Origin: Candidatus Omnitrophota bacterium
Lineage (GTDB): Bacteria > Omnitrophota > Gorgyraeia > Duberdicusellales > 4484-171
Length of the DNA: 61,686 nucleotides
Assembly: GCA_043823745.1 (NCBI GenBank)
Contig: JBDRAN010000012.1
Coordinates: 1-61,686, forward strand
Direction of reading: 5' to 3'
Shown here piece after piece: positions 28,351 through 42,792 of the stretch; position 1 is the first letter of the stretch; every line of letters begins with the position of its first letter. Under the pieces are notes generated by a model that worked only from the letters and a program-made list of their open reading frames with translations, was not told the origin of the DNA and ran no database searches. The position numbers and the translations under genes are program-made.

Positions 28351-28445
28351 GGGTGACGCATGTTGCGAGAAAATATGTGTACGAGTGTTCTTGATTCCAT
28401 GTTTGTGTGTGGTATGATACAATTGAATGGGTTCAAGGAGGTGCT

Positions 28446-29210
28446 ATGAGAGTGATAGGTTTTTTTATCGTTTGCATCTTAAGTATCGGAAGCGCTTTTT
28501 TTTGTTTTGCAGAGTGTTCTGGTGGCGGATGCGTTGAAAGCGCCGCGGATGAGTGGGTCTTCAACGAAACAAATGCTTATTGTAATGTTTTACCCCGGCC
28601 GGCAGCGAGTTGGTTCGCGAAAGCAGGGGTCAGCGAAGCTTCGCTTCGTTGGGATTTATCTAATTTTTACGATGGTAACTTCTTTCTTTTGAGTAAGCTC
28701 CGGGCAGGGATTGCGTCAGGAGAGGCATTGACCGGAACTCCCCAGGAGCGCGCGCAGTGGCAGCAGGTGATTCAGCAGGCGCAGGTATTACCGTTTCCCT
28801 GGAGGACCGCGGGTATTGCCCGGCTTTCAGGCGGCCGAGCCCGTCTTGTTACTGATGAGGATGGGTTTGCCTCAATTGGACAGGAGCTGATTCTTAAAAA
28901 TAAATACAGTGTTCTTTTGACTTTTAACTATACTGCCGTTCAGGCAAGCAGTAATGATATGCTTGAGGTGGTGGCTATTTTTCCGCCTGCCGTAGGAGAA
29001 ACGGGTGTATCAGAGGAAGTCATTCTTAGTTCGCATCGCTTGGCCCGGCTTTCCGAGCTTGAAGAGGTGTCGATACCGGTTTTTAAAAATAAGAGTTTCG
29101 AGAGAGCGTTTGGCTCGGCCGGAACACGTCGGGTGGAGATCGCCGTGCGGATTAAAGGAAATGCTCAAAAGGCCGCCACCGTTGATTTCGGTAATTTTAG
29201 TATAGCGTAG
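28446..29210 (+). CDS. Secreted hypothetical protein, paralog of 36114-36797
   Basis: GGAGG RBS, signal peptide; PWRTAG, ASIGQELIL and ATVDFG align with PWRARG, ASLSQDIKL and ATVRLD. Confidence 0.7.
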   Translation: MRVIGFFIVCILSIGSAFFCFAECSGGGCVESAADEWVFNETNAYCNVLPRPAASWFAKAGVSEASLRWDLSNFYDGNFFLLSKLRAGIASGEALTGTPQERAQWQQVIQQAQVLPFPWRTAGIARLSGGRARLVTDEDGFASIGQELILKNKYSVLLTFNYTAVQASSNDMLEVVAIFPPAVGETGVSEEVILSSHRLARLSELEEVSIPVFKNKSFERAFGSAGTRRVEIAVRIKGNAQKAATVDFGNFSIA

Positions 29211-29331
29211 GAGTATCCGTATCTCGCGCACCGGGGAAATAAAAATAATTGACTCTATGCTCGGAGGGTGTACAATAACAGTGATGTTTTCGGGTGGTAT
29301 AATCAATAATGATATTAAAAAAGGAGGAGAA

Positions 29332-29787
29332 ATGAGAAGCTGGTATTTTAGATTGGGGCTCATTTTCCTAGTAACCGCTAGCTTTAGTGGTGTGGTGGCT
29401 GCGGCAAGCGAAACGATTACGATAAGCACGTATTATCCTGCCCCCTTCGGTGTATATAAGCAGATGAAAGTTATGCCTACCCAGACTGCATATATGGTTC
29501 TTGGGGATGACCCGAATAATTCGCGTAATCCTGTCATAAGCCTTGTTGACGCGGATGCAACGGCGGCCGCCGGGGCGGGTACGTTACGCCCCTCGATTAC
29601 GTTTCAGAATTCCGTATCTACCGCCGCTGTTGATTTTCGTATTGCACAATTCGGTGATAATGATTTACGTATTATCGGAGGAACGACTACCTTCGTGAAT
29701 AATGGGGGTAATTACGGAAGGATTAGAGCGGGCGAACTTTGGATTTGCAGCGGTCTTGCTACCCCCACCAACATTGTTCCTGATTGA
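29332..29787 (+). CDS. Secreted 'TISTYYPAP' motif protein, paralog of 36886-37302
   Basis: AGGAGG RBS, signal peptide, ETITISTYYPAPFGVYKQM, GDNDLRIIGGTTTF. Confidence 0.75.
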   Translation: MRSWYFRLGLIFLVTASFSGVVAAASETITISTYYPAPFGVYKQMKVMPTQTAYMVLGDDPNNSRNPVISLVDADATAAAGAGTLRPSITFQNSVSTAAVDFRIAQFGDNDLRIIGGTTTFVNNGGNYGRIRAGELWICSGLATPTNIVPD

Positions 29788-29801
29788 CGAGTGGATATAT
29801 C

Positions 29802-30203
29802 ATGACAACAAAAGGCGGCATCATAGAAGAAGGGAAGGATAGCGTCAAATTGGCAGTTAATTGCGAAATGTACCCTCTTCAAAGCGTTTACGCGGCAGCG
29901 TATGTTTTTTTGGATAAAGCGTATGTGTATCTTGATAAAGAATCAAAGGATACAATCAGTGTATGGCTGTTCCGGAAAAACAAAAAAGACAATCTTCGAA
30001 CATTCGGCATGGATTTCTACAACGAGCTTTTAAATTATGCGCATTACTTTAGCAGTCTTAAGGCGAACGCCGAGGCGATTAAGCTCCTGATGCAACGGGC
30101 ACTTTTTTCCGCTTCCCCGTCGCTTGCGCTTGAAGCGGGGAAGAAAGAGATAGAGGGCCTTGCGCAGGAGCTTACCGATAAAAAAGCGCGTAACGGGCGA
30201 TGA
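29802..30203 (+). CDS. hxsD: His-Xaa-Ser system protein HxsD
   Basis: YPLQSVYAAAYVFLDKAYVYLD...DFYNELLNY...ALF matches the HxsD pattern; HxsB and HxS precursor are nearby. Confidence 0.8.
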   Translation: MTTKGGIIEEGKDSVKLAVNCEMYPLQSVYAAAYVFLDKAYVYLDKESKDTISVWLFRKNKKDNLRTFGMDFYNELLNYAHYFSSLKANAEAIKLLMQRALFSASPSLALEAGKKEIEGLAQELTDKKARNGR

Positions 30204-30415
30204 TGTTCTTAAAGAAAACCGGTAAGAAGATATTTATCAAGCTCCACAAGGAGTTATATGACCGGAATGTTATTGAACGGGTCAAGCGCCAGGAGCCCGG
30301 CATTCTCGGTGTGGTACATAGCGACGCCGCGCATTATCTTGTTGAGATGAGGACAAAACAGAGACGCGATTACCTTGATTTTTTAAATTATCTTATCTAT
30401 ATGGCGCGCGCATAG
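30200..30415 (+). CDS. Small HxsD-like protein
   Basis: 71 aa, coupled to hxsD; IKLHKELYD...DFLNYLI echoes the HxsD layout. Confidence 0.55.
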   Translation: MMFLKKTGKKIFIKLHKELYDRNVIERVKRQEPGILGVVHSDAAHYLVEMRTKQRRDYLDFLNYLIYMARA

Positions 30416-30475
30416 CGTGGTGATAGCGTAAAAATCGAGCTAAAAAATTTTCCTGTTCTAAAAAGGAGGTCGTCG

Positions 30476-30889
30476 ATGAGTAAACCGAAAGAAAAAAAAC
30501 ACTTTAAACCCGTGGCCCGGAGTATCAAGAACTTCCTTAAAGATGAAGATGGTTTCGTTACAAAAAGCAGCATTCTTAAAATTAGCTTAGGGACAGTCGC
30601 TTCCATGGGAATCCTTAGCTCGGCATTTGCGGATTATAATATAAGCCCTATTCGTGTCTCTGATGTCTGGGTTAATACTAACTTTGCTAATTTTCACACC
30701 AACAGTGTCGGGCTTGCCGCGCTCCCTGCCCCTTATGCTGCTCAATTTCCTGAATGTCAACGTATGCTTCATACTAATACGACCGCTCACTTAAGCCATA
30801 GTTCGCATGATTTCCATATGAACGTACGCGGACGGCTTGACGCTAAGGGGTGGGTTGGTAAGATCGTCTACAACGGCCCGTTACTTTAA
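30476..30889 (+). CDS. Putative RiPP-like precursor 1: Flp-pilin-like leader plus His-Xaa-Ser/His-Xaa-Asn core
   Basis: AGGAGG RBS; leader IKNFLKDEDG|FVTKSSILKISLGTVASMGILSS; core HTN, HTN, HLSHSSHDFHMN. Confidence 0.8.
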   Translation: MSKPKEKKHFKPVARSIKNFLKDEDGFVTKSSILKISLGTVASMGILSSAFADYNISPIRVSDVWVNTNFANFHTNSVGLAALPAPYAAQFPECQRMLHTNTTAHLSHSSHDFHMNVRGRLDAKGWVGKIVYNGPLL

Positions 30890-30909
30890 GCAGCATAGTT
30901 TCTGCCTAT

Positions 30910-31722
30910 ATGCGAGGTTTAAAGGCGTTCGGCCACCAATATCAAAAGGGTATTAGATTATTTTCTATTGCAGTCGTGTTTATCGTGGTGACGGTTAGTT
31001 TTTCCGTTGCGGATGCCCAAGAAAATAGCAATACTCCTTCCTTCCTGCCGGGAAAAAATTCCGATGATAGTTTCCAGCGTAAGATAGCCTTCGCTAAAGA
31101 TGTCTTGCAGAAGGCGGGATACCTCGAGATCCTCGAGGTGTATCGCGCGGTTAGAGAAGAGGATACATCTCGGTGCGCATCACCCCAGGCGGTAACCCTT
31201 GCCAACGATCTGCTTGCCTTACGCTATGCCGGAGAGAATCGTTGCGGCAGCATCAAAAATGTTCTTTTCCGCCAGATGTGCGAAGCTGCAAACGCTGACA
31301 GTTGCGATGCGGCAGGTCCTTTAAAAAATTTCTGCTCCGGGGTGCGCGCAAGCGATCCCGTAAGACTTATGCGTGAGCTTTCAGGCGGTGAATTTTTGAA
31401 AGCGCTTGGCGTGCAATTGCCTATCACCGAGAACACCGTTTTATTCGGGCTCTCAATATATTATGGATTTAAGCATTACAGTCCTGTCGCTTGCGAGCGC
31501 TTTTTGAATGACGCGCGTCTTCCGTTGTCCTCCAAGGTTTCCTGCCAGCTTCTTTTCGCTCAGGATTTTAATAGTCAGTATGATTCGCTTGTTAATGATC
31601 TCGCTCTTTTTATGGTTTCGCGCCTGGCGCCACAGGAAGGTGCTTGCGAACAGATACAGAATGGGCGGGTGAAAAAGGCGTGCTTGAACAAGGCGATTAA
31701 AGACTTGGGCGATATCTGGTAA
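30910..31722 (+). CDS. Secreted cysteine-rich hypothetical protein
   Basis: Signal peptide; repeated C-x2-I-x-N-x6-C units (CGSIKNVLFRQMC, CEQIQNGRVKKAC). Confidence 0.7.
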   Translation: MRGLKAFGHQYQKGIRLFSIAVVFIVVTVSFSVADAQENSNTPSFLPGKNSDDSFQRKIAFAKDVLQKAGYLEILEVYRAVREEDTSRCASPQAVTLANDLLALRYAGENRCGSIKNVLFRQMCEAANADSCDAAGPLKNFCSGVRASDPVRLMRELSGGEFLKALGVQLPITENTVLFGLSIYYGFKHYSPVACERFLNDARLPLSSKVSCQLLFAQDFNSQYDSLVNDLALFMVSRLAPQEGACEQIQNGRVKKACLNKAIKDLGDIW

Positions 31723-31726
31723 TTTT

Positions 31727-32581
31727 TTAGCGAAACATTTTGAAGAGCGTTTCCGGAAAACCCGCATAGGTAAGGAGCGCTCCCAGGAACATAAAAGGCG
31801 CCAGGGGCACACGTACGGGCTTTTTGCTTTGGAGCCCTATCGCGGCGTTGAGAATATAGAAACCGATAGAATAGAGGAGTGTTATGCGCATAAAGGCTAT
31901 AATATTTCCGGGTTCAAAGAAGCGTGGCATCGTACAGTAGCGCAGCATGAGTCCCCCGATACCAAGAACAAGGATAAGGAGTTTGTAGCGGATTACGCTG
32001 ATACCCTGGAATATGACGGCATATGAAATAAAAAGAATTACAACGTTAAGGAAAGGGTTGGGGGGAAGTGGTAGAAGTTTTAAGGCCGGCGGCACGATCC
32101 AGGTGATGCTTGCAATGATCATGATTGTCCTTCCAAAATAGAGCATGGTTTTTTTTGATATCAATTGCTTGAAGAACGTAGTTTTATTCTTGATTATATC
32201 GTTCCCCAGCGAAGGAACCAGCCCCAGAAGACTGACAAGAAACGTATTAAGGAAAAGCGCCAGGCAGGGGAGCGGCACTACCGATTGATTGGCTGCGGAG
32301 GGGACCAGGAGCAGGGAATAGGTGACAAAGAGCTTTGCGTCTCCTGCTTTCCAGGCACGGGCAAGATAAAGTATGAACCCGATACCAAGCCCGACGAGAG
32401 GATTCAGAACAATGCGGGGTGTCCAGGGGATAGAGCCAAGCGCCATGCCGACACCGTACCCGAGAATTCCGGCTGTGCCGAGCGCGCACAGGTGCCTGTT
32501 GCGTATTTTTTTTATGGCGATGTCGGTAGTTATGGTAAGCGCCCCGGTTACAAGAAGCACAATTAAAAAATATATATTCAT
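31727..32581 (-). CDS. A24 family prepilin peptidase without methylase domain
   Basis: Catalytic aspartates in TTDIAIKKIRN and AGDAKL; C-terminal RVPLAPFMFLG; multi-TM. Confidence 0.88.
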   Translation of the reverse strand: MNIYFLIVLLVTGALTITTDIAIKKIRNRHLCALGTAGILGYGVGMALGSIPWTPRIVLNPLVGLGIGFILYLARAWKAGDAKLFVTYSLLLVPSAANQSVVPLPCLALFLNTFLVSLLGLVPSLGNDIIKNKTTFFKQLISKKTMLYFGRTIMIIASITWIVPPALKLLPLPPNPFLNVVILFISYAVIFQGISVIRYKLLILVLGIGGLMLRYCTMPRFFEPGNIIAFMRITLLYSIGFYILNAAIGLQSKKPVRVPLAPFMFLGALLTYAGFPETLFKMFR

Positions 32582-32662
32582 GGTATTTTTTGTTATTATA
32601 GCATATCGGGCTCAACGAGCAGTATTTTTTTCTGATGCTTCCGCGGCGAGGGTGAAGGCTCT

Positions 32663-33661
32663 ATGAGTAAATTTACGATACGGAGGTGTTTATCGGGTGA
32701 TCTTTCTAGCCTGGTTGGATTTTTCCGGCGCATGAAAGCCGCGTACGATGTTAATTTCCTGCCGCAGGATAAAGATGCGTTTTTGGAAAAATATTATTGG
32801 CCGGACGCGGAAGAAAAATTTAATTATTATCTTCTGCATAATCGTGATGGCGCAATCGTCGGCGGCACCGGATATGTCCCTTTTAAGGGTCTTTTTTGCC
32901 GGAAACCGCTCTCCGGGTTTGTGGCAACGGATAGCATCATCGACCCGGCCTGGCGCCGGAAGCTCCCCGGGCTCGTCCCTTTATTTGCGCGTACGTATGA
33001 GCGCATGGTGCGCGGCGAAAAGCTATTTCCATTGGCCTGCCCCGCTTCAGAGACGGTTGCGGAAAGTTTCAAGCGAGTGCGCTGGAGCCAATTTACCTGG
33101 ATTTACAAGCTGTATAGTCCGGTTGTAGCCAGGGTTACCCCGCACCTGGCGGCAGCGGGGCTTTGCATTGAGCGGATTGAATGTTTTGATAAGTCGTTTG
33201 AAGAGTTTTTTAAAATGATCGCGTCGGACTACGATTTCCTGATGCACGCCGATCGGGAATTTCTTAATCAAAAATATTGCGGCAATACCCGGGGCCCGTA
33301 TGTCATCCTTGCCGCGCATATGAAGCGTAAACTTTCCGGTTACCTGGTATGCCTGATACGCGACTGCGACATTGAAATCGTCGACGTCACGATCGACATA
33401 CGTTTGCCGCACCTTATCCTTTTCTTGATGTATGCGGCATTTTCGTATTGCCCCCGCCGGGATATTGCGATAACAACTTGTTATGTCAGCAATAAACGTT
33501 ATTTTGAAATCTTGCGTTCAATGGGCTTTTCCTGTTGCTGGGAGGTTGAATGTTTATTTTTTAAACCCGTGGCATTATTCCACCCGGGTTTTGCCGCCGC
33601 AATGGAGCAGTCTGATATGTCAACCTATCATTGCAACGGTTTTACGCAGCAGGCATATTGA
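32663..33661 (+). CDS. Tandem-GNAT acyltransferase 1
   Basis: GFVATDSIIDPAWR, YDFLMHADREFLNQKY, IEIVDV; paralog of 39442-40452. Confidence 0.72.
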   Translation: MSKFTIRRCLSGDLSSLVGFFRRMKAAYDVNFLPQDKDAFLEKYYWPDAEEKFNYYLLHNRDGAIVGGTGYVPFKGLFCRKPLSGFVATDSIIDPAWRRKLPGLVPLFARTYERMVRGEKLFPLACPASETVAESFKRVRWSQFTWIYKLYSPVVARVTPHLAAAGLCIERIECFDKSFEEFFKMIASDYDFLMHADREFLNQKYCGNTRGPYVILAAHMKRKLSGYLVCLIRDCDIEIVDVTIDIRLPHLILFLMYAAFSYCPRRDIAITTCYVSNKRYFEILRSMGFSCCWEVECLFFKPVALFHPGFAAAMEQSDMSTYHCNGFTQQAY

Positions 33662-33721
33662 TGCACGTAATAAGCGCGCAATCATTTTAGTGGATTTTTT
33701 TTGAAGGGTGTGTATAGTAAT

Positions 33722-34612
33722 ATGGCTATGCCGACGGTGGTAACCGGAATATCTTTTGTCTCTGTTAAAACCCTGCCGCAGGTCGCGGATATTGTCGAAT
33801 GCAGCCGCCGCCTCCTGGTTGATCGAGGTGCCGTCATTACCCCGCAGGCGTCCCGCCGCTACGGTTTTTTTCTTGGAACAACATTCAGTAATTTTGCTAT
33901 CCGTAAAGCTAACACTGAAAAGTATTTTTCTCGGGGTGTCCGGCCCATCAACCCCGCCGATTTCCCCAAAGGTTTAATTTCATATCTGGGCGGCGAGTCA
34001 TGCACCGCGCTGGGTATCAAGGGATTTAACATTACCTTTTCAAGCGGTGTTTCTTCAGGCGTTGACGCGCTTATGCAAGGAGTGTATTTTGCCGCGCGGC
34101 ATAAGGGCAATAGGGCGCTGGTGCTTACGCTGCATGAAGCTTTAAAGTCAAACGCGCGTATCGGTTTTTCGGGAATAAGCGGTATTATGGTTGAGGCCGC
34201 GCCTCTTTGTGAGCGTTCCTATGCCGAGATTATGGGATTTAAGTCAGTCTTTGAAAAAGCAGGAGATTGTGAAGGATTACAAAAGCTTATCACGGCGGCT
34301 GTAACGCAGTACCGCCTCCATGAAGCTTCCTTGATGGTTGCCTGTAGCGGCCGATCACGTGGCTCTATAGGATCCCGGCTCTTTGAGCGGATACGTGCAT
34401 CATATCCTATGGTAGAAACGATCAAGTCACCGGTACGTGGCGGGATTTCTGAATTGCTGCGGATCGTAAAGAAAAAAATATGGCTCAAGGAAAAGTATAT
34501 TTTGTTCTCGCAGCTCGGGGAAAACAGCAATAGCGGTTGCGTTGTGCTGCGCGTATCGAAAAGAGGAGGATATCCCGATGAAAAAAAATTCTACCAAAAA
34601 AAGTGTGCGTAA
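33722..34612 (+). CDS. Ketosynthase-like partner (chain-length-factor-like, no catalytic Cys)
   Basis: YGFFLGT, INPADFP, LGIKGFNITFSSGVSSGVDAL where the active-site Cys is absent, YAEIMG; precedes ACP and KS. Confidence 0.72.
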   Translation: MAMPTVVTGISFVSVKTLPQVADIVECSRRLLVDRGAVITPQASRRYGFFLGTTFSNFAIRKANTEKYFSRGVRPINPADFPKGLISYLGGESCTALGIKGFNITFSSGVSSGVDALMQGVYFAARHKGNRALVLTLHEALKSNARIGFSGISGIMVEAAPLCERSYAEIMGFKSVFEKAGDCEGLQKLITAAVTQYRLHEASLMVACSGRSRGSIGSRLFERIRASYPMVETIKSPVRGGISELLRIVKKKIWLKEKYILFSQLGENSNSGCVVLRVSKRGGYPDEKKFYQKKCA

Positions 34613-34895
34613 GAAAACCAAATCCGCTCATTCCGCGCCCCCGGCAAGCGGGAACATTAGAGACCAGGCTATTGAAATTATCAGCAATCTTGCGAAGCTG
34701 CCGAAGGATAAAATGCTGCAGTATAATCGGGAGAACTTTACCGATGTAGGTCTTGATTCTTTTACACTGGTTGAAATTGTATTTTCTATCGAGAACACGT
34801 TTGACATTGATATTCCGCAGGATAGTTTACCCGGTATCAAAAATCTTGATGATTTGATTTCACTTATTGAGGAGCTTGTTAAAAAACGTGGCTGA
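34578..34895 (+). CDS. Acyl carrier protein
   Basis: GLDSFTLVEIVFSIENTFDIDI phosphopantetheine site; GAGGAGG RBS. Confidence 0.92.
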   Translation: MKKNSTKKSVRKKTKSAHSAPPASGNIRDQAIEIISNLAKLPKDKMLQYNRENFTDVGLDSFTLVEIVFSIENTFDIDIPQDSLPGIKNLDDLISLIEELVKKRG

Positions 34896-36039
34896 ACGGG
34901 TTGTGGTGACAGGTCTGGGCGTTGTTTCTTCGCTGGGCGTTACCGTCGAGGTATTTTGGAAGAACCTTATTGCAGGGGCTTCAGGGATGAGTCCTATCGA
35001 GGCGTTTGCGACCGGGCACCTGGAACGCCGCGTCGGAGGAGAAATAAAAAAGTATCAGATTCCTGCAGGCACTCATCATCTGCCCCGGAGCCATCAATTT
35101 GCAATCGATGCATGCGCGAAGGCTCTGGCTGACGCGGGCCTGAGCTACCCGGCGCATTGTGATGTCGCCTTAGGGAGTATTGTCGCAGGACTCGAGTTTC
35201 TTGAAAAAAAACACAAGAGCTTTAAAAATTACCCGCTATATATGCTTGCGGCTAACGTTATAGAGATGCTTACGGTGCGCGGCGCCGCCTTTACGGTGTC
35301 CGGAGCCTGCGCCGCGGGAAACTACGCGGTAGGCTTGGCGTATGAGCGCATTAAGCGCGCAGAGGCAGAGGTGATTCTTGCCGGGGGCGCTGACTATTTT
35401 TCTGAAGGAACATTCATCGGTCTTTATAAAGTTTTTTCACTCGCGCCGGATATATGTCAGCCGTTTGATAAAAATCGTAAGGGCTTGATCCCGGCGGAGG
35501 GTGCGGGAGTACTTGTTCTTGAGTCGCTTTCAAGCGCCCGCAGGCGGGGCGCGCGTATTTACGCGGAAGTTCTAGGCTATGGAGCAAGCACCGATGCCTA
35601 TCACCCGCTCATTCCCTTGCAGGAAGGCATTTATGGGTGCATGGAGGATGCCTTGCGCGCATGCGGCGTCAGCGGCAGTGATATCGATTATATTAGCGCG
35701 CATGGTACGGGCACGGTTCCTAATGACAAAGCGGAATGTCAAGCAATACGCAAACTTTTTGGCAAAGCGCGTTCTAAAAAAATACCCGTAAGCTCAATCA
35801 AATCGATGCTCGGCCATGCGATGGGGGCGGCAAGCGCGATTGAGTCGATTGCCTGCTGTATGGCTATTTCCCGTGGAATACTCCCACCAACGATCAATTA
35901 TAAAACTCGTGATCCTGAGTGTGACCTTGATTGTGTGCCCAATACCGCGCGCGCTTATCGGGCTGATATTATCCTTAACAATGCCTTTGGGTTTGGCGGG
36001 ATGAATTGCTCTGTTGTTCTGGGACGTTGGAAAAATTAA
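34888..36039 (+). CDS. Beta-ketoacyl-ACP synthase (FabF/KAS II-like)
   Basis: RVVVTGLG, GACAAG (Cys), AHGTGT, KSMLGHAMG, NAFGFGGMN. Confidence 0.95.
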   Translation: MAERVVVTGLGVVSSLGVTVEVFWKNLIAGASGMSPIEAFATGHLERRVGGEIKKYQIPAGTHHLPRSHQFAIDACAKALADAGLSYPAHCDVALGSIVAGLEFLEKKHKSFKNYPLYMLAANVIEMLTVRGAAFTVSGACAAGNYAVGLAYERIKRAEAEVILAGGADYFSEGTFIGLYKVFSLAPDICQPFDKNRKGLIPAEGAGVLVLESLSSARRRGARIYAEVLGYGASTDAYHPLIPLQEGIYGCMEDALRACGVSGSDIDYISAHGTGTVPNDKAECQAIRKLFGKARSKKIPVSSIKSMLGHAMGAASAIESIACCMAISRGILPPTINYKTRDPECDLDCVPNTARAYRADIILNNAFGFGGMNCSVVLGRWKN

Positions 36040-36076: not shown

Positions 36077-36104
36077 TTGACAAGAAACGGTTATGCGATA
36101 TACT
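36077..36104 (+). promoter_or_regulatory. Sigma70-like promoter for the second cluster module
   Basis: TTGACA-N16-TATACT. Confidence 0.55.
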
Positions 36105-36113
36105 AAAAATATC

Positions 36114-36797
36114 ATGAAAATGCAGAGGAGAAAAGTCATTACCGCTGGTTTTTTACTTGCGCTGTTTCCGGTATGGTGCTATGCGCAGACTATTACCATA
36201 AAAGGATCAACCGAGAAAAAACCCCTTACCACGGCTCAGATAGGCGCGTCCTACGAAGTTTCCGATAATTTTCAAAACGGTGATTTTCAGCAATCCGCTC
36301 AGTATGAAACGGCAGTTGCGTCAAACCCCCTGTTTAATCCTCCCTATGCGTTGCGTGCGAACGAACAAGCCCTGGTTGATTTTTTTAAGAAGCCGCTCCT
36401 GTTGCATCCTTGGCGTGCACGAGGCGATGTGAAGCTGGTGCATGAGGGGGATAACATTCTTGTCCAGCTTAATCTTGCCAAGGGGGTGGAAGCATCATTG
36501 TCTCAGGATATTAAATTGAGAGATAAAAATGCTCGTATTGAATTTGATCTTTTTGGTACGGGTGGCGCACCGTCGGGGGTATTTGAGGTAGCGATTCTTG
36601 ATGCATCGGGCCGCTTCCCGATCGCCACATACAGCGCATCTACGATCTCATCCCAGAAACATTGCGTTATAAATCTAAGCGGCAATAAAAATCTTATGGC
36701 TCGCAAAGCCGGCGATACGCTCACGGTTGAGTTTTCCTTACGGGGCAAAGAGCAAGATTCGGCAACCGTGCGTCTTGACTCTGTAGTGATTATGTAG
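36114..36797 (+). CDS. Secreted hypothetical protein, paralog of 28446-29210
   Basis: Signal peptide ending CYA; C-terminal beta-rich domain shared with the paralog. Confidence 0.7.
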   Translation: MKMQRRKVITAGFLLALFPVWCYAQTITIKGSTEKKPLTTAQIGASYEVSDNFQNGDFQQSAQYETAVASNPLFNPPYALRANEQALVDFFKKPLLLHPWRARGDVKLVHEGDNILVQLNLAKGVEASLSQDIKLRDKNARIEFDLFGTGGAPSGVFEVAILDASGRFPIATYSASTISSQKHCVINLSGNKNLMARKAGDTLTVEFSLRGKEQDSATVRLDSVVIM

Positions 36798-36885
36798 CAA
36801 TAGTGAAGGGCTCTTACGCGCCGCCGGCGTGCGTATAGGTATTCTTAAAAAAGAGATATTCGTTCTCGAAAAGAAGGAGGAGTGT

Positions 36886-37302
36886 ATGAGGAAAAATTTT
36901 TTTGTTGCTCTTATGTGTGCCGCGGTGGTGTCTATCGGTGCGAGTGCGTTTTGCGCCGATGAAACAATAACGATATCCACCTATTATCCGGCTCCGTATG
37001 GTGTGTATAAAAAAATGCAAATTATGGATACCCAGGGAGCCAACATAACCTTGTACAGTAGTGACCCCGTTACCGCCGGTAACCCTACGTTAGCCTTAAG
37101 CGATAGTAATGCAGCCGGGGGGTTGATCCCTTCAATTACGTTTGATAATGATCCAGCAGCCAGCCCTGACTTTCGCATATCACTTCGTGGCGATAACGAT
37201 CTTCGGGTGCAGGGGGGCACGACGACATTTACCGATGATGCCGGAAACTATGCGCCCGTGCGTACCAGTAAAATTATTATTTGTTCCGGAGCCGCAACGT
37301 AA
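36886..37302 (+). CDS. Secreted 'TISTYYPAP' motif protein, paralog of 29332-29787
   Basis: AAGGAGG RBS; ETITISTYYPAPYGVYKKM, GDNDLRVQGGTTTF, ICSG. Confidence 0.75.
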   Translation: MRKNFFVALMCAAVVSIGASAFCADETITISTYYPAPYGVYKKMQIMDTQGANITLYSSDPVTAGNPTLALSDSNAAGGLIPSITFDNDPAASPDFRISLRGDNDLRVQGGTTTFTDDAGNYAPVRTSKIIICSGAAT

Positions 37303-37363
37303 TTACTATGGTGTATCCCGTATGTATCGAAAAAACACTATTGCGTAAGGGGTGGGCGTCGCA

Positions 37364-38764
37364 ATGACTGATCGCGTAACACTTCCTTTTAACTCGCGCG
37401 TGATACGTAACAGGTATCTTGTGTCCAATGCCCTTGGAAACTGGGATTTTCTGGAGAAGAACGAATTTCAGGCTTTTCATGGATTGCGTCTTAAACAGGG
37501 AACACCTCTGTTTAGGCGGCTTTATGAGAAAGGTTTGTTGGCGGATGAGCATAACATAAAAACTCTGGTCGATGACTACCGGAATTTAAATGCTAATATT
37601 TTCCATGACACCAGATTACATATTGCCGTTGTGACAACCCGGTGCAATTTACGCTGCTGCTATTGCCAGGCACATACCGGCGCGTACCAGGATATGGACA
37701 TTACGGTCGCAAGCCGTGTTTTAAAGAATATCTTTGACGTTAAAAGCCCCTGCGTTACGTTAGAGTTCCAGGGTGGTGAGCCGCTGCTTAATTGGGAGAC
37801 GGTGCGCTTTCTCATCGAGCAGGCTACAAAGATCAATAACGGCGTAAAACAGCTGCAGTTTTCCCTGACGAGTAATCTAACCTTGCTTGATGATGAGAAA
37901 ATGAAATTTCTCACGGACCACGGCGTCGGAATGTGCGGTTCTTTAGATGGCCCCCGGCACATTCATGATCATAATCGAACGTTTGCCAAGGGCGCGGGAA
38001 GTTACGATACCGTAGTCAAAAACATTCATAGATTTGAAACTGCGTTTGGCGCCAAAATAGGTCTTCTCCCCACCGTTACTAAGCACTCATTACCGTATTA
38101 TAAAGACATCGTTGATGAGTATGTGCGTCTTGGTCAAAGCAGCATTGCGCTTCGGCCGGTCAATCAGCTGGGGCATGCCTGTGCGCAGTGGAATACGCTT
38201 GGCTATACCGCTGAGGAGTTCAGTGAGTTCTACCGCAAGGCCCTTGAGTATATTCTTTCCTTAAATAAAAAAGGGATTTTCATTCGCGAGCGAATGGCTG
38301 CGATTATGCTTGAAAAAGTGCTCAATAAAAAAGATCCCGGATATGTTGAGCTGATGAATCCCTGCGGCGCGGGCCGGGGCCAGATCGTGTATATGCCGGA
38401 TGGAAGTTGTTACCCGTGCGATGAGTCTCGGATGGTGGGTGATGAGATGTTTAAGCTTGGCAATATTCTCGATGAGGATTACGAGGACCTGATGCACAAG
38501 GAAAATCTCCTGCACCTTCTTGAGTCTTCCCTGATGAACCTGTGGGATTATAATTCTGCGTTTGCGCCCTGGATGGGGACCTGCCCGGTTGTTAATTACG
38601 CGGCGCAGAAGAACTTTGTTCCTAAAATCTGGTGTTCAGCGGTCCATAAAATCTATACGGCTCAATTTAACTATCTTTTTGAAAAAATGGAGCAAAGCGA
38701 GGAAAATACAAAGATTTTTAGGCAATGGATAAAAAAGGAGGGTGTTTATGAATCAAAAAAATAA
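37364..38764 (+). CDS. hxsB: His-Xaa-Ser system radical SAM maturase HxsB-like
   Basis: LPFN..YLVSN N-terminus, LHIAVVTTRCNLRCCYCQA, EFQGGEPLLN, SLDGP, GYVELMNPCGAG, YPCDESRM. Confidence 0.85.
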   Translation: MTDRVTLPFNSRVIRNRYLVSNALGNWDFLEKNEFQAFHGLRLKQGTPLFRRLYEKGLLADEHNIKTLVDDYRNLNANIFHDTRLHIAVVTTRCNLRCCYCQAHTGAYQDMDITVASRVLKNIFDVKSPCVTLEFQGGEPLLNWETVRFLIEQATKINNGVKQLQFSLTSNLTLLDDEKMKFLTDHGVGMCGSLDGPRHIHDHNRTFAKGAGSYDTVVKNIHRFETAFGAKIGLLPTVTKHSLPYYKDIVDEYVRLGQSSIALRPVNQLGHACAQWNTLGYTAEEFSEFYRKALEYILSLNKKGIFIRERMAAIMLEKVLNKKDPGYVELMNPCGAGRGQIVYMPDGSCYPCDESRMVGDEMFKLGNILDEDYEDLMHKENLLHLLESSLMNLWDYNSAFAPWMGTCPVVNYAAQKNFVPKIWCSAVHKIYTAQFNYLFEKMEQSEENTKIFRQWIKKEGVYESKK

Positions 38765-39179
38765 GAAGCGATTTGATACCGTCGGGAAAACAATCAAGAG
38801 CTTCATGCGAGATGAGGATGGGTTTGTCGATAAGGGAAAAATCTTAAAAATCAGTTTGGGTACCGTTGCGACATTGGGTATCCTTTCCTCGACATTCAAT
38901 AGCCAGGCTTTAGGGCATGCTAACTACCGACATCAGAATTATGCCGGCCCCAGTGATCCCCAAATTACACACATGAATGGGCAGCTGAATCTTACCAGCC
39001 ACGCCAATACCGTGACGCTGCAGAATATTACGGGGATGACGGGCTGTCAGGAGATAGTGCATAGTAATGCGAATAATGTATTGAAGACATATGTCTTAAA
39101 TGGGGGGATTAACGGTACGGCGACGTATCGCGACTTCTATAATCAATGGGGCGAGGGTGGCAAAATATACGAAGTATAA
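38748..39179 (+). CDS. Putative RiPP-like precursor 2: Flp-pilin-like leader plus five His-Xaa-Asn motifs
   Basis: AAGGAGG RBS inside the hxsB end; leader IKSFMRDEDG|FVDKGKILKISLGTVATLGILSS; HAN, HQN, HMN, HAN, HSN. Confidence 0.8.
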   Translation: MNQKNKKRFDTVGKTIKSFMRDEDGFVDKGKILKISLGTVATLGILSSTFNSQALGHANYRHQNYAGPSDPQITHMNGQLNLTSHANTVTLQNITGMTGCQEIVHSNANNVLKTYVLNGGINGTATYRDFYNQWGEGGKIYEV

Positions 39180-39441
39180 AAAATCGGCTGCCGGTGTATC
39201 GCACGAATCAATTTTTTGATACGATCGTCCGAGTATAGAAACCGCCCGGGAATACGTTGTTGATTTTTCTCCATGGATGCGTGCCTAAAACATGGCACAC
39301 ATGAGTGCGGCTCGGTAGGTTCCTGGAGTGCGTATATTTTCCCGCTGACAATTATCATGTGTCCGGTCTGTCCGCTGCCGGCACGTAACATCACATTAAG
39401 TTTGATTCCTTTATTTTTTCGAAGATTTCTACCCATGGTGT

Positions 39442-40452
39442 ATGCCAACGAACTTAAAGTTTCACGTATGTCGATGCAGCGTCGATGATATCGATAATCT
39501 TGTTACGTTTGCCTCAAGGCTGGCGCATAAGAACATAGTTTTTTTACCCCGCTCCAAAGAACACTTCCTGCGTAAATATCTTAGTTATGGAGAAAAAACC
39601 GGAACGCTCAATCTTTTTGCTATCAAGCGAGAAGATGGAGATATTGTTGGTGTGAGCGGCTTTGTTCCGTTTAAGGGATTTTTTGGCAACAAAATTTTCC
39701 AGGGCTTTATCGGCACTGACGCGGCGATTGACCCCCACTACACCGTCCGCTATCCCGGCCTGGCCGCAATGCTTGCAATGAGTTATGAATCGATGGTACG
39801 TGTCGAGAAGCGGTTTCCCTTAATTTTCCCTAACGATAAAAAGGTCCTTAAAGCGTTTCGGGGTGTGCGCTGGGGAGAGTTTTCTCGCCTGGAGGAGTGG
39901 GTAAATCCTTTCGCGATGCAGCTTATCCCTGATTTTGGCACCGGATCAATCGAAGTCTCGCGCATAGAGCATTTTGAATCTTCAGACCAGCGGTTTTTTA
40001 AACGCGTGGCTTCGCAGTATGATTTTCTGATGCAGGCGGATATTGATCTTTTAAATTGGCGGTATTTTGACAATCCATATGCGGCACAGTCTATCGTCGT
40101 GGCTGCGCGCCGGCAGGGCGAGCTTGCCGGTTACATGGTGGTGCAGGGCGTGGGGGTAGACATCTGCATTGTCGATACGGTTATCGATTTGGAACACCCC
40201 TCCGCGCTTTTACTGCTGCTTTTTAAAACCTTGGAATACTTTGACCGTACCGCGAGCGCGCGTATCCTGTGCTATATGAGCCACCAGCGGTATATTGAAA
40301 TTTTAAGTAAAATAGGATTTTTTAGACAGCATATCTTAAAATGCCTTTTTTTTAAGGCAGGATTGCTTTTTAGCAACACTTCACATGACTTGATGCATGC
40401 TGGTACTTCTCAGCGTTACCATTTTAATGGGTTTGCCCCGCATTTGTGCTAA
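39442..40452 (+). CDS. Tandem-GNAT acyltransferase 2
   Basis: GFIGTDAAIDP, YDFLMQADIDLLNWRYFDNP, YHFNGF; paralog of 32663-33661. Confidence 0.72.
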   Translation: MPTNLKFHVCRCSVDDIDNLVTFASRLAHKNIVFLPRSKEHFLRKYLSYGEKTGTLNLFAIKREDGDIVGVSGFVPFKGFFGNKIFQGFIGTDAAIDPHYTVRYPGLAAMLAMSYESMVRVEKRFPLIFPNDKKVLKAFRGVRWGEFSRLEEWVNPFAMQLIPDFGTGSIEVSRIEHFESSDQRFFKRVASQYDFLMQADIDLLNWRYFDNPYAAQSIVVAARRQGELAGYMVVQGVGVDICIVDTVIDLEHPSALLLLLFKTLEYFDRTASARILCYMSHQRYIEILSKIGFFRQHILKCLFFKAGLLFSNTSHDLMHAGTSQRYHFNGFAPHLC

Positions 40453-40649: not shown

Positions 40650-40976
40650 ATGGTATACGTCTATATTTTAAAAAGTAAGAAAGATGCGAGCTATTATGTT
40701 GGTCAAACTGAGCATATTGTTGATAGATTATATAGACATAATACAGCGCAATCTGTATCAACAAAATTAAAGATACCTTGGGAATTAGTTTATCTGGAAG
40801 AATTTAACACGAGGCCACTCGCAGTTAAACGGGAACTGCAGATAAAGAAACAAAAGCGTAAAAAATATATAGAAAGATTAATCAAATCGGGGCGTGGCTC
40901 AGTTCGGCTAGAGCACTTGGTTTGGGACCAAGAAGTCGGTGGTTCAAATCCACTCGCCCCGACCAAAATTTCATGA
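40650..40976 (+). CDS. Small GIY-YIG nuclease family protein (ORF reads through tRNA-Pro)
   Basis: MVYVYILKS....YYVGQT....RL.RHN...PWELVYLEEF...A..RE..IKK. Confidence 0.88.
   Translation: MVYVYILKSKKDASYYVGQTEHIVDRLYRHNTAQSVSTKLKIPWELVYLEEFNTRPLAVKRELQIKKQKRKKYIERLIKSGRGSVRLEHLVWDQEVGGSNPLAPTKIS
40888..40965 (+). tRNA. tRNA-Pro(TGG)
   Basis: CGGGGCG acceptor, CTTGG-TTTGGGA-CCAAG, GTTCAAATC, ACCA. Confidence 0.96.
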
Positions 40977-41571: not shown

Positions 41572-41696
41572 TAATGTTTTCCCTGCCACCGGTTTCTACT
41601 ACACTAAAAAACTGATTGTGTGACGCATGTGTATTAGGTAGGGGTATGGGGTTGGCATTGTGTGTTTCCGGGGGAGTACGTAAGAAGAATTATCGT

Positions 41697-42247
41697 AATG
41701 AAGTCGTAATTTTTCAAACAAGAGGGTCCAGGCGTATTGTGAAGAAAAATTACATGACTGAATTACCCCGAGCTTTGGCACAAAGAATTTCAAAGAAATT
41801 CGATTGCCATGGTAAAAGCGAGGGAGGAGCTCATTGGATTGATATTATCGATGCATCTATATACGTGCAAAATTTATACTAAATTTTGCAAAAATGTGTC
41901 GATTTAAGTGACTCTAATCTTTTTTAAGTCTTGAACAACTTAAAAAAGCTAAGAGTCACTAAGCGCCCGCAATGAAGTCGTAATTTTTCAAACAAGAGGG
42001 TCCAGGCGTATTGTGAAGAAAAATTACATGACTGAATTACCCCGAGCTTTGGCACAAAGAATTTCAAAGAAATTCGATTGCCATGGTAAAAGCGAGGGGG
42101 AGGCTCCTGGACAGTGACATCATCGACGCGCCTCTATAGCTTGCAAAATTTATACTAAATTTTGCAACAATGCGTCGATATAACCAATTCTAAGATTTTT
42201 GTTCGCCCCTCTGGGCCTCCAAAAGTCTAAGAATTGTTAAGCGCCCG
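41697..42247 (+). repeat. Tandem duplication of a ~274-bp non-coding unit
   Basis: 41697-41970 and 41971-42247; first ~125 bp essentially identical; both end in taagcgcccg. Confidence 0.9.
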
Positions 42248-42478
42248 TAGCTTCCGCCAAAGGCGGGATTTCGCTGGGTGGCTACGGTTAAGGAGCTCAA
42301 CAATTGGAGTTATCCAATTTCTCACGGGCGCACAAGGAGAGCGCGAGAGGAAAGAATTTCTTCTCGTATTACGTAGACACCATTGAAAGGAAGGGAAGTG
42401 ACAGGTGCTAACCCACGGAGTGGGTGAGCCCGTCAGAGAGGGGAAACGTAGTTTCCTCTTCATGAAGAACGAAGTGAT

Positions 42479-42552
42479 GCGCCCGTAGCTCAATTGGATA
42501 GAGCAACTGCCTTCTAAGCAGTAGGTTGTGTGTTCGATTCACGCCGGGCGCG
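42479..42552 (+). tRNA. tRNA-Arg(TCT)
   Basis: GCGCCCG acceptor, ACTGC-CTTCTAA-GCAGT, GTTCGATTC. Confidence 0.95.
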
Positions 42553-42746
42553 TGTTATCATTATTAGAGAATAAGCAACAATACGCAGGCATTGCATTAG
42601 ACAGCTTTGAAAATCTTCAGGGTGACAGCGAGCCGCATTTGACTTCAGGGGTTTATCGTGTAGGCGAGCGTCATAAGGGACAGAGTCCCTTTGAAGGCCA
42701 AGATTCGTTTCCTGCGAATGCGTGCGCAAGCACTCTTGGCCATGGT

Positions 42747-42792
42747 AGTAGGTTGTGTGTTCGATTCACGCCGGGCGCGTGTTATCATTATT
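42747..42792 (+). repeat. 46-bp direct repeat of the tRNA-Arg 3' end plus trailer
   Basis: Identical to 42520-42565. Confidence 0.9.

Follow-up and report, generated by a model that had tools for sequence, protein, structure and literature searches.

The 61,686-nt contig JBDRAN010000012.1 of a Candidatus Omnitrophota bacterium (GenBank assembly GCA_043823745.1), here called the window, carries a gene for the radical S-adenosylmethionine (rSAM) maturase HxsB and, overlapping its 3' end, an open reading frame (ORF) for a small protein, precursor 2, in which every histidine is followed at position +2 by asparagine. A paralogue, precursor 1, and an HxsD-like protein are encoded upstream (the coordinates are collected in Table 1). 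Comparison across genomes showed that the His-x-Asn (HxN) triad predominates among the internal motifs of an HxsA3-like precursor family that is uncurated and found mostly in Omnitrophota.

The assignment of the gene adjoining precursor 2 to hxsB, made in an earlier interpretation of the DNA without database searches (the sequence-only reading), was borne out by the curated model TIGR03978, matched with 412.8 bits (cut-off 370) over model positions 2-466 of 466. The CxxxCxxC motif lies at C98/C102/C105, and the cluster cysteines are invariant in alignments of relatives. A GGAGG was located 7 nt 5' of the ATG of precursor 2 at 38748, and the start of the gene overlaps by 17 nt the 3' end of hxsB, whose stop codon is at 38762-38764. 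Owing to this overlap, translational coupling of the two genes, which had been asserted outright, is plausible.

In precursor 2, a leader bearing D-E-D-G-F (G25/F26) is followed by a hydrophobic helix (approximately residues 29-53) and then by the core. The protein contains exactly five His (residues 57, 62, 75, 85, and 105), and these form, in order, HAN, HQN, HMN, HAN, and HSN, with no HxS among them, just as the sequence-only reading had it; residue 100 is the sole Cys. Composition-preserving shuffles yielded five HxN triads once in 100,000 trials with the complete sequence and twice in 100,000 with residues 51-143 alone; with the residue left free and the offset variable between -3 and +3, an equal score came up in 6 of 50,000 shuffles. 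No Pfam domain, peptidoglycan-binding domains included, was found in the protein at E ≤ 0.01, and the single match among curated models was HxsA3 (NF038309), with 19.0 bits against a cut-off of 65.

In precursor 1, the triads HTN, HTN, HLS, HSS, HDF, and HMN (three HxN and two HxS) were present as previously read, together with a leader His (HFK) that had gone unmentioned. Taken alone, its three HxN are weaker evidence, being matched by 901 of 100,000 core shuffles, and its score against the HxsA3 model was 26 bits. The leaders of the two precursors are identical at 31 of 48 positions, and their alignment contains the pattern H[TA]N[ST]V...CQ-x3-H[TS]N noted earlier in both. Within their family, the two proteins belong to a small subgroup set apart by its C-terminal extension.

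A word-index homologue search with precursor 2 returned only the protein itself, and an exhaustive profile search of 1.84 billion representatives was needed; it yielded 57 proteins at E ≤ 1e-3. Four were dropped (the repeat protein P0023 and the truncated P0026, P0030, and P0042), leaving 53 sequences including the two from the window. P0023 itself is a 397-aa, Asn/Gln/Tyr-rich protein with four leader-like repeats (D-D-D-G-S-x-D-K-S and a short hydrophobic stretch) and no His-rich core. The 53 sequences share a D-E-x-G leader with invariant Glu and Gly, a hydrophobic stretch, and a His-rich core. The HxsA3 model was matched by 47 of 50 representatives, always below its cut-off (best 46.7 bits). 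NF038309 is the one curated model touched by these proteins, and their leader region can be aligned with it.

Enrichment of HxN among homologous precursors, proposed in the sequence-only reading as a check, was pronounced. In the 51 other cores, the residue at His+2 was Asn for 110 of 267 His (41%, background 8.0%) and Ser for 97 of 267 (36%, background 11.8%), together 207 of 267 (78%). Shuffling gave expected counts of 21.7 ± 4.2 (Asn) and 33.7 ± 5.1 (Ser), and the observed counts were reached in 0 of 5,000 shuffles. At least one HxN was present in 48 of the 53 sequences and at least two in 38, and every His was in an HxN in just three, precursor 2 among them. The triad could be a matter of chance, a by-product of Asn-rich composition, or a series of N-x-S/T glycosylation sequons, since Asn is the second commonest residue of precursor 2 (15/143) and three N-x-T sites occur there. 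These explanations are hardly credible in view of the shuffles of precursor 2 and of the family, and the sequon version was rejected, as x-S/T comes after the HxN Asn in 47 of 172 cases, in line with the S+T background of 22.6%.

The choice between Asn and Ser depended on the site, as counted over 79 non-identical sequences. The first core His was followed at +2 by Asn in 44 and by Ser in 21 of 78 sequences, the last His before the conserved Cys by Asn in 42 and Ser in 6 of 57, and the first His after this Cys by Asn in 39 and Ser in 19 of 67. The C-terminal end was HxSY in 46 and HxNY in 1 of 51 sequences. In this clade, Asn occupies at internal sites the position that belongs to Ser in canonical HxS repeats, and Ser is retained at the C-terminal HxSY.

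An alignment of HxsB from the genome of the window and seven relatives led to 560 confirmed loci in species-representative genomes, of which 80 were kept for counts. Matches to the precursor-family profile numbered 66 ORFs, spread over 61 of the 80 loci, and almost all of them begin within a few tens of bases past the hxsB stop, in keeping with the earlier view of both window ORFs as HxsB substrate-type proteins. At least two Hx[NS] triads were present in 63 of the 66 HxsB-adjacent precursors, and the His-x-(Asn/Ser) triad is the sole core feature that travels with HxsB. The loci were split by HxsB identity to the protein of the window into 30 close (≥45%) and 50 distant (<45%) ones. The close loci were labeled Candidatus Omnitrophota (14), "uncultured Planctomycetia/Planctomycetales" (11, third-party bins), and other (5); the distant ones come from DPANN archaea, Patescibacteria, Elusimicrobia, Myxococcota, and others and carry classical HxS repeats. 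In a count by enzyme clade that leaves out four precursors without the anchor motif, Asn stood at His+2 in 60 of 158 cases and Ser in 70 of 158 in close loci, compared to Asn in 64 of 408 (16%) and Ser in 272 of 408 in distant loci. The Asn share at His+2 tracks the HxsB clade. HxN had been taken as particular to the HxsB variant of the window; it proved instead to be part of a clade-wide, site-specific Asn/Ser mixture that persists at 16% Asn in the distant precursors. Tandem precursor pairs were seen in some related loci (L062, L051, L072, L073, and L105), and L062 contains two hxsB copies and a truncated precursor-like ORF without a core.

HxsC was not found in the genome of the window (92% complete), where TIGR03977 was matched with at most 48.6 bits (cut-off 267.9). 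Sub-threshold matches also came from all 14 control genomes, and the 48.6-bit match is therefore best described as generic rSAM similarity. None of 41 related genomes had a TIGR03977 match over the cut-off, and none of 11 second rSAM ORFs in the close loci matched HxsC or HxsC4 at E ≤ 1e-40; seven ORFs of distant loci matched HxsC4, all below its cut-off. HxsB itself was present in 7 of 40 related genomes, a patchy distribution.

On balance, we consider precursors 1 and 2 to be probably substrates of an HxsC-less Hxs-type maturation system typical of Omnitrophota, in which HxsB acts on the H-x-N/S triads. The system would comprise HxsD, a 71-aa HxsD-related protein, HxsB, an HxsA3-like precursor, and usually a divergent A24-type membrane peptidase, and the precursor would be made up of a leader of about 25 residues ending in E-x-G, a hydrophobic helix, and a core with His followed by Asn/Ser at +2. 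For the chemical and processing steps, we infer the following course. The leader would be bound by HxsB in the cytoplasm, the H-x-N/S triads would be acted on by HxsB, and an i-to-i+2 link would join the His imidazole to the beta-carbon of Asn/Ser, as in triceptides. The product would then be inserted or exported and its leader removed, with an A24-like cut at G25/F26 as the first choice and signal peptidase cleavage at a small-x-small site before the first His as the alternative.

The cross-link from the His imidazole to the Asn/Ser beta-carbon is the likeliest reaction by analogy, albeit a tentative and rather doubtful one. The His-to-Asn chemistry of the sequence-only reading has piecewise precedent, because Asn/Ser partners and the His C2 are each known in triceptide enzymes: Trp or Phe is linked to the Cβ of Asn by XncB and OscB and Phe to the Cβ of Ser by MscB (PMC11002830), and the C2 of His is linked to the Cβ of Ala, Arg, or Lys by HaaB, YhhB, and HtkB (PMC11002830, PMC11499958). 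The His-Asn pair itself and the HxsB family appear, on this comparison, to be without precedent for such a link, and in the accessible parts of the two papers no His-to-Asn or His-to-Ser link is given (PMC11002830, PMC11499958). In the literature searched, no description of an HxN motif in an Hxs context was found, the matches being kinase papers only. Like the triceptide systems, the locus combines repeats of an aromatic-x-X3 motif within one precursor (in precursor 2 the five H-x-N, as a sequence pattern only) with a SPASM-type rSAM maturase, and in those systems Asn/Ser are known at X3 and His as the aromatic residue (PMC11002830, PMC11499958). Unlike them, the substrate is a 143-aa protein with a membrane-type helix and not a short peptide.

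A number of observations weigh against the maturation reading, as follows. HxsB fails the curated models of the known three-residue cyclophane synthases YhhB (65.5 bits, cut-off 445), FxsB (64.4 bits, cut-off 370), and AmcB (57.9 bits, cut-off 425), the match in each case covering the rSAM core only, and outside the Hxs families it comes closest to the thioether formers PapB (149.3 bits, cut-off 340) and the SCIFF maturase (129.8 bits, cut-off 425). Precursors 1 and 2 are atypical of their family in having no C-terminal HxSY, and at +5 after the leader Gly they carry Ser and Gly, respectively, not Glu/Asp. The HxsD-like protein scores below the curated cut-off (TIGR03976, 35.7 vs 50 bits), and its gene is separated from hxsB by about 7 kb, lying upstream beside precursor 1; the A24-like protein also falls short of its model (Pfam Peptidase_A24, 18.6 vs 26.5 bits). 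DNA of the locus was found in groundwater metagenome runs from three studies, one possibly the source, and no RNA run was listed among the runs carrying it; there is no sign of use. In an HxsC-containing system, a single +8 Da change, the only Hxs modification measured in the literature searched, was located on the last HxS repeat, in the motif SHRSS, and was assigned in the model to HxsC-HxsD and not to HxsB, and no -2 Da products are reported in the accessible text (PMC13128918).

The triads might instead be unmodified and work by themselves, providing for instance a face of His and Asn that binds metal or forms hydrogen bonds, with HxsB acting at one restricted site, such as the conserved Cys, to form a thioether, or the C-terminal HxSY in relatives. 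This would suit the thioether-forming maturases among the best matches of HxsB, the published system with one modified site and not one per repeat (PMC13128918), and the presence of at least one core Cys in 50 of the 66 HxsB-adjacent precursors and in 51 of the 53 representatives. An AlphaFold2 (AF2) model of precursor 2, built from the 53-sequence alignment, was poor overall (mean predicted local distance difference test [pLDDT] score 65.6), the confident parts being the helix 29-53 and a hairpin 85-93/101-109, with a pLDDT of 94 for block 91-100. The hairpin pairs the strands of HAN(85-87) and HSN(105-107), with Cys100 in the turn, and would set His and Asn side chains on one face; as a model, it fits such a face and an enzyme-accessible triad pair alike and does not decide between them. 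Since 16 of the 66 HxsB-adjacent cores are without Cys, a thioether at Cys alone, the fallback of the sequence-only reading, can hardly be the reaction that is conserved. Neither window precursor offers an HxSY end. Plain metal binding, in turn, leaves the placement of Asn/Ser exactly at +2 of 78% of the His unexplained. Unmodified triads with a single restricted site therefore seem to us unlikely, if well worth keeping in view. Contigs X2-X5 covered 38600-39300 with identical pieces only and zero variants and are silent on selection on the triads.

The HXS system of HxsA/B/C/D was reportedly described in 2011 by Haft and Basu. An HxsD-B-C-A system has been found to act against phages, with HxsA N-terminally processed and exported and HxsC binding HxsD, the radical chemistry being left unsettled, and 99.7% of HXS systems were placed in Pseudomonadota (PMC13128918). 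Cross-links and HxN are not mentioned in the accessible portion of that paper (PMC13128918). For a canonical comparison, three plasmid-borne HxsA2-type systems were used, two annotated as such and one unannotated; their HxsA2-type proteins have 18 HxS and 0 HxN among 22 His. The window locus resembles HXS in its HxsB over the cut-off, an HxsD-type partner, and a seemingly exported substrate with repeated His-x-small-polar triads, and the wider family shares the C-terminal H-x-S-Y end with the plasmid HxsA2 examples. It differs in the Asn at His+2 (5/5 in precursor 2 vs 0/22 in the plasmid proteins), in having no HxsC, in the gene order D-(small ORF)-B-A compared to D-B-C-A, in its leader (E-x-G and helix compared to a plain Sec signal), and in its host Omnitrophota, a core that is not basic, an A24-type peptidase neighbor, and the missing peptidoglycan-binding domain. 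The plasmid HxsA2-type proteins end in ...S-S-S-Y, ...S-S-R-Y, and ...S-S-S-R, close to the HxSY of the Omnitrophota family, and nuclease genes border the plasmid loci (L120-L122), of the thermonuclease family at two of them and of the HNH type at the third.

From these likenesses, the locus could be an HXS-type antiphage system whose precursors are exported effectors modified like Escherichia coli HxsA (+8 Da, one triad). The homologous HxsB and HxsD, the exported appearance of the substrate, and the patchy distribution of HxsB would agree with this, as would the demonstration of HXS as a defense system with an N-terminally processed effector (PMC13128918). We nevertheless regard it as quite improbable: HxsC, required in the published system, was not found; precursor 2 has no peptidoglycan-binding or other Pfam domain; leader type and gene order differ; and the published model builds on basic DNA-binding repeats, whereas the core of precursor 2 has four K+R vs five D+E and the median net charge of the family is -2.2 per 100 aa.

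The leader of the precursors resembles a prepilin-type signal in its sequence. A Gly at -1, Phe at +1, and Glu at +5, followed by a hydrophobic helix, is the pattern of prepilin-type (class III) signals. In the 79 non-identical sequences, the invariant Gly was followed at +1 by Phe in 50 and Tyr in 7 cases (57/79) and at +5 by Glu/Asp in 60, with the hydrophobic helix next. Unlike in prepilins, charged residues stand between the leader Gly and the hydrophobic stretch, the residues before the Gly are acidic and not basic, precursors 1 and 2, although they keep the Gly-Phe, have no acidic +5, and the cluster contains no pilus assembly genes. Homologues of the A24-like protein occurred in 30 of the 80 HxsB loci (15/30 close and 15/50 distant), and in DPANN loci the gene stood directly upstream of hxsD. 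Among the aligned homologues from HxsB loci, 22 of 27 matched Peptidase_A24 and seven the archaeal A24 C-terminal domain. The residues D20, N28, W77, G80, D81, K83, and L84 were invariant, and the regions of D20 and G80-D81-x-K83-L84 are what we take to be the two catalytic Asp motifs of the A24 family. A profile search of the PDB with this alignment gave a chance match only (E 0.36). A canonical A24 gene was also present on another contig of the genome (48.4 bits). Cleavage of the leader at G25/F26 by the A24-like peptidase is a fair prospect, if somewhat short of an even one, and is favored over signal peptidase. The alternative, signal peptidase I, would be suited by a small-x-small site that immediately precedes the first core His and was present in 36 of 78 sequences.

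A bolder version of the maturation reading would hold that the precursors are prepilin-like exported proteins of Omnitrophota and other uncultured lineages, with heads stapled by HxsB alone through several His-Asn/His-Ser i-to-i+2 C-C links, that HxsB is an independently arisen cyclophane synthase family preferring Asn, and that the leader is cut by a dedicated A24-type peptidase and not by a soluble protease for RiPPs (peptides synthesized by the ribosome and modified post-translationally). We think this improbable as a whole. If true, it would connect the stapling of peptides by radical SAM enzymes with the class III signal pathway and provide the first defined HxsB reaction.

The HxsB family was named over a decade ago and has lately turned out to be required by an antiphage system, in a study that could not part its reaction from that of HxsC. 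As the loci described here naturally have no HxsC, any change in the substrate would be attributable to HxsB, which makes them a clean system in which to learn its reaction. The small substrates and the sharply defined motif (His, Asn/Ser at +2, and a site preference) render the question directly testable, and the outcome would tell annotators whether the name "His-Xaa-Ser" is too narrow. The A24-type peptidase and the prepilin-like leader, moreover, suggest a route of leader removal not found described for RiPP-like systems in the literature searched.

Table 1. Positions of the genes and triads of the cluster in the window
Feature	Coordinates	Strand	Description
Two secreted proteins	28407..29210, 29257..29787	+	Start of copy 1
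HxsD-like protein	29784..30203	+	Single copy in the window
71-aa ORF	30200..30415	+	Between hxsD and precursor 1; overlaps the hxsD stop
Precursor 1	30476..30889	+	137-aa paralogue of precursor 2; no hxsB adjoining
Secreted Cys-rich protein	30910..31722	+	270 aa; 3' of the precursor in relatives
A24-like membrane protein	31727..32581	-	Candidate leader peptidase
GNAT paralogue	32663..33661		38% identity to 39442..40452
Ketosynthase (KS)-like/chain length factor (CLF)-like gene	33701..34612	+	Lineage-specific neighbor
Acyl carrier protein (ACP)	34542..34895	+	Lineage-specific neighbor
FabF-like KS	34867..36039	+	Lineage-specific neighbor
Partial paralogues of the two secreted proteins	36093..36797, 36829..37302		Start of copy 2
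HxsB	37352..38764	+	Radical SAM/SPASM maturase, 470 aa
Precursor 2	38748..39179	+	HxsA3-like substrate-type protein, 143 aa; core with five H-x-N triads
Triad codons of precursor 2	38916-38924, 38931-38939, 38970-38978, 39000-39008, 39060-39068	+	
GNAT-like acyltransferase	39442..40452	+	Atlas 0.97 to Acetyltransf_9 clusters, template modeling (TM) score 0.83

The genes form one contiguous block in seven related genomes, in the order two secreted proteins, hxsD, the 71-aa ORF, hxsB, and the precursor, followed by the secreted Cys-rich protein and, on the opposite strand, the A24-like gene; in the nearest relatives only, the order ends with GNAT-like, KS-like/CLF-like, ACP, and KS genes. In the window, this order is distributed over two copies. 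Copy 1 (28407..36039) is complete but for hxsB, and copy 2 (36093..40452) comprises two secreted-protein paralogues, hxsB, precursor 2, and the GNAT paralogue; it has neither hxsD nor the 71-aa ORF, and the genes for the Cys-rich and A24-like proteins and the KS/ACP set are missing as well. The paralogues of the two copies are 47% (the ORFs at 29257 and 36829), 38%, and, for the leader, 66% identical, and no similarity between the copies was found at the DNA level. A recent tandem duplication of the cluster was rejected on these grounds, and judged by sequence, the cluster is made up of two old, mutually complementing partial copies. If the system works, both precursors must therefore depend on a single HxsB and a single HxsD.

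Of 70 loci tested, 65 had HxsD or HxsD_rel as the ORF immediately upstream of hxsB. The HxsD-like protein of the window was 43-70% identical to the products of genes 5' of hxsB in six related genomes and 31% identical in a seventh. A predicted HxsB-HxsD complex reached a score of 0.23 against a mark of 0.32, was made with no controls, and weighs neither way on binding. The 71-aa ORF, which looks unannotated, matched HxsD_rel (NF038315) faintly (E 0.045) and was detected by tblastn between hxsD and hxsB in 13 related loci, in which two locus pairs represent the same contig.

The 270-aa Cys-rich protein was encoded in 10 of the 30 close and 0 of the 50 distant loci, and an Atlas search with it returned nothing above 0.81. 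Pfam searches at E ≤ 5 on the neighbors without an assigned function gave nothing useful. The GNAT gene and the KS/CLF/ACP set were each present in just 3 of the 30 close loci and find no support as core parts of the system. Situated inside the cluster, the GNAT pair and the KS/CLF/ACP set would suit peptide lipidation.

Downstream of the cluster, an ORF at 40650-40976 encodes a GIY-YIG domain (Pfam E 6.4e-16), and its 3' end is overlapped by tRNA-Pro(tgg) at 40888-40965. Two features were noted in the stretches 41694-42200 and 42478-42792. One is a tandem duplication of about 275 bp, with a 139-nt unit of 97% and a 59-nt unit of 85% identity. The other is a 46-nt segment, identical to the 3' part of tRNA-Arg(tct), that lies 227 nt downstream of this tRNA and looks like the type of duplication left by an element integrated at a tRNA.

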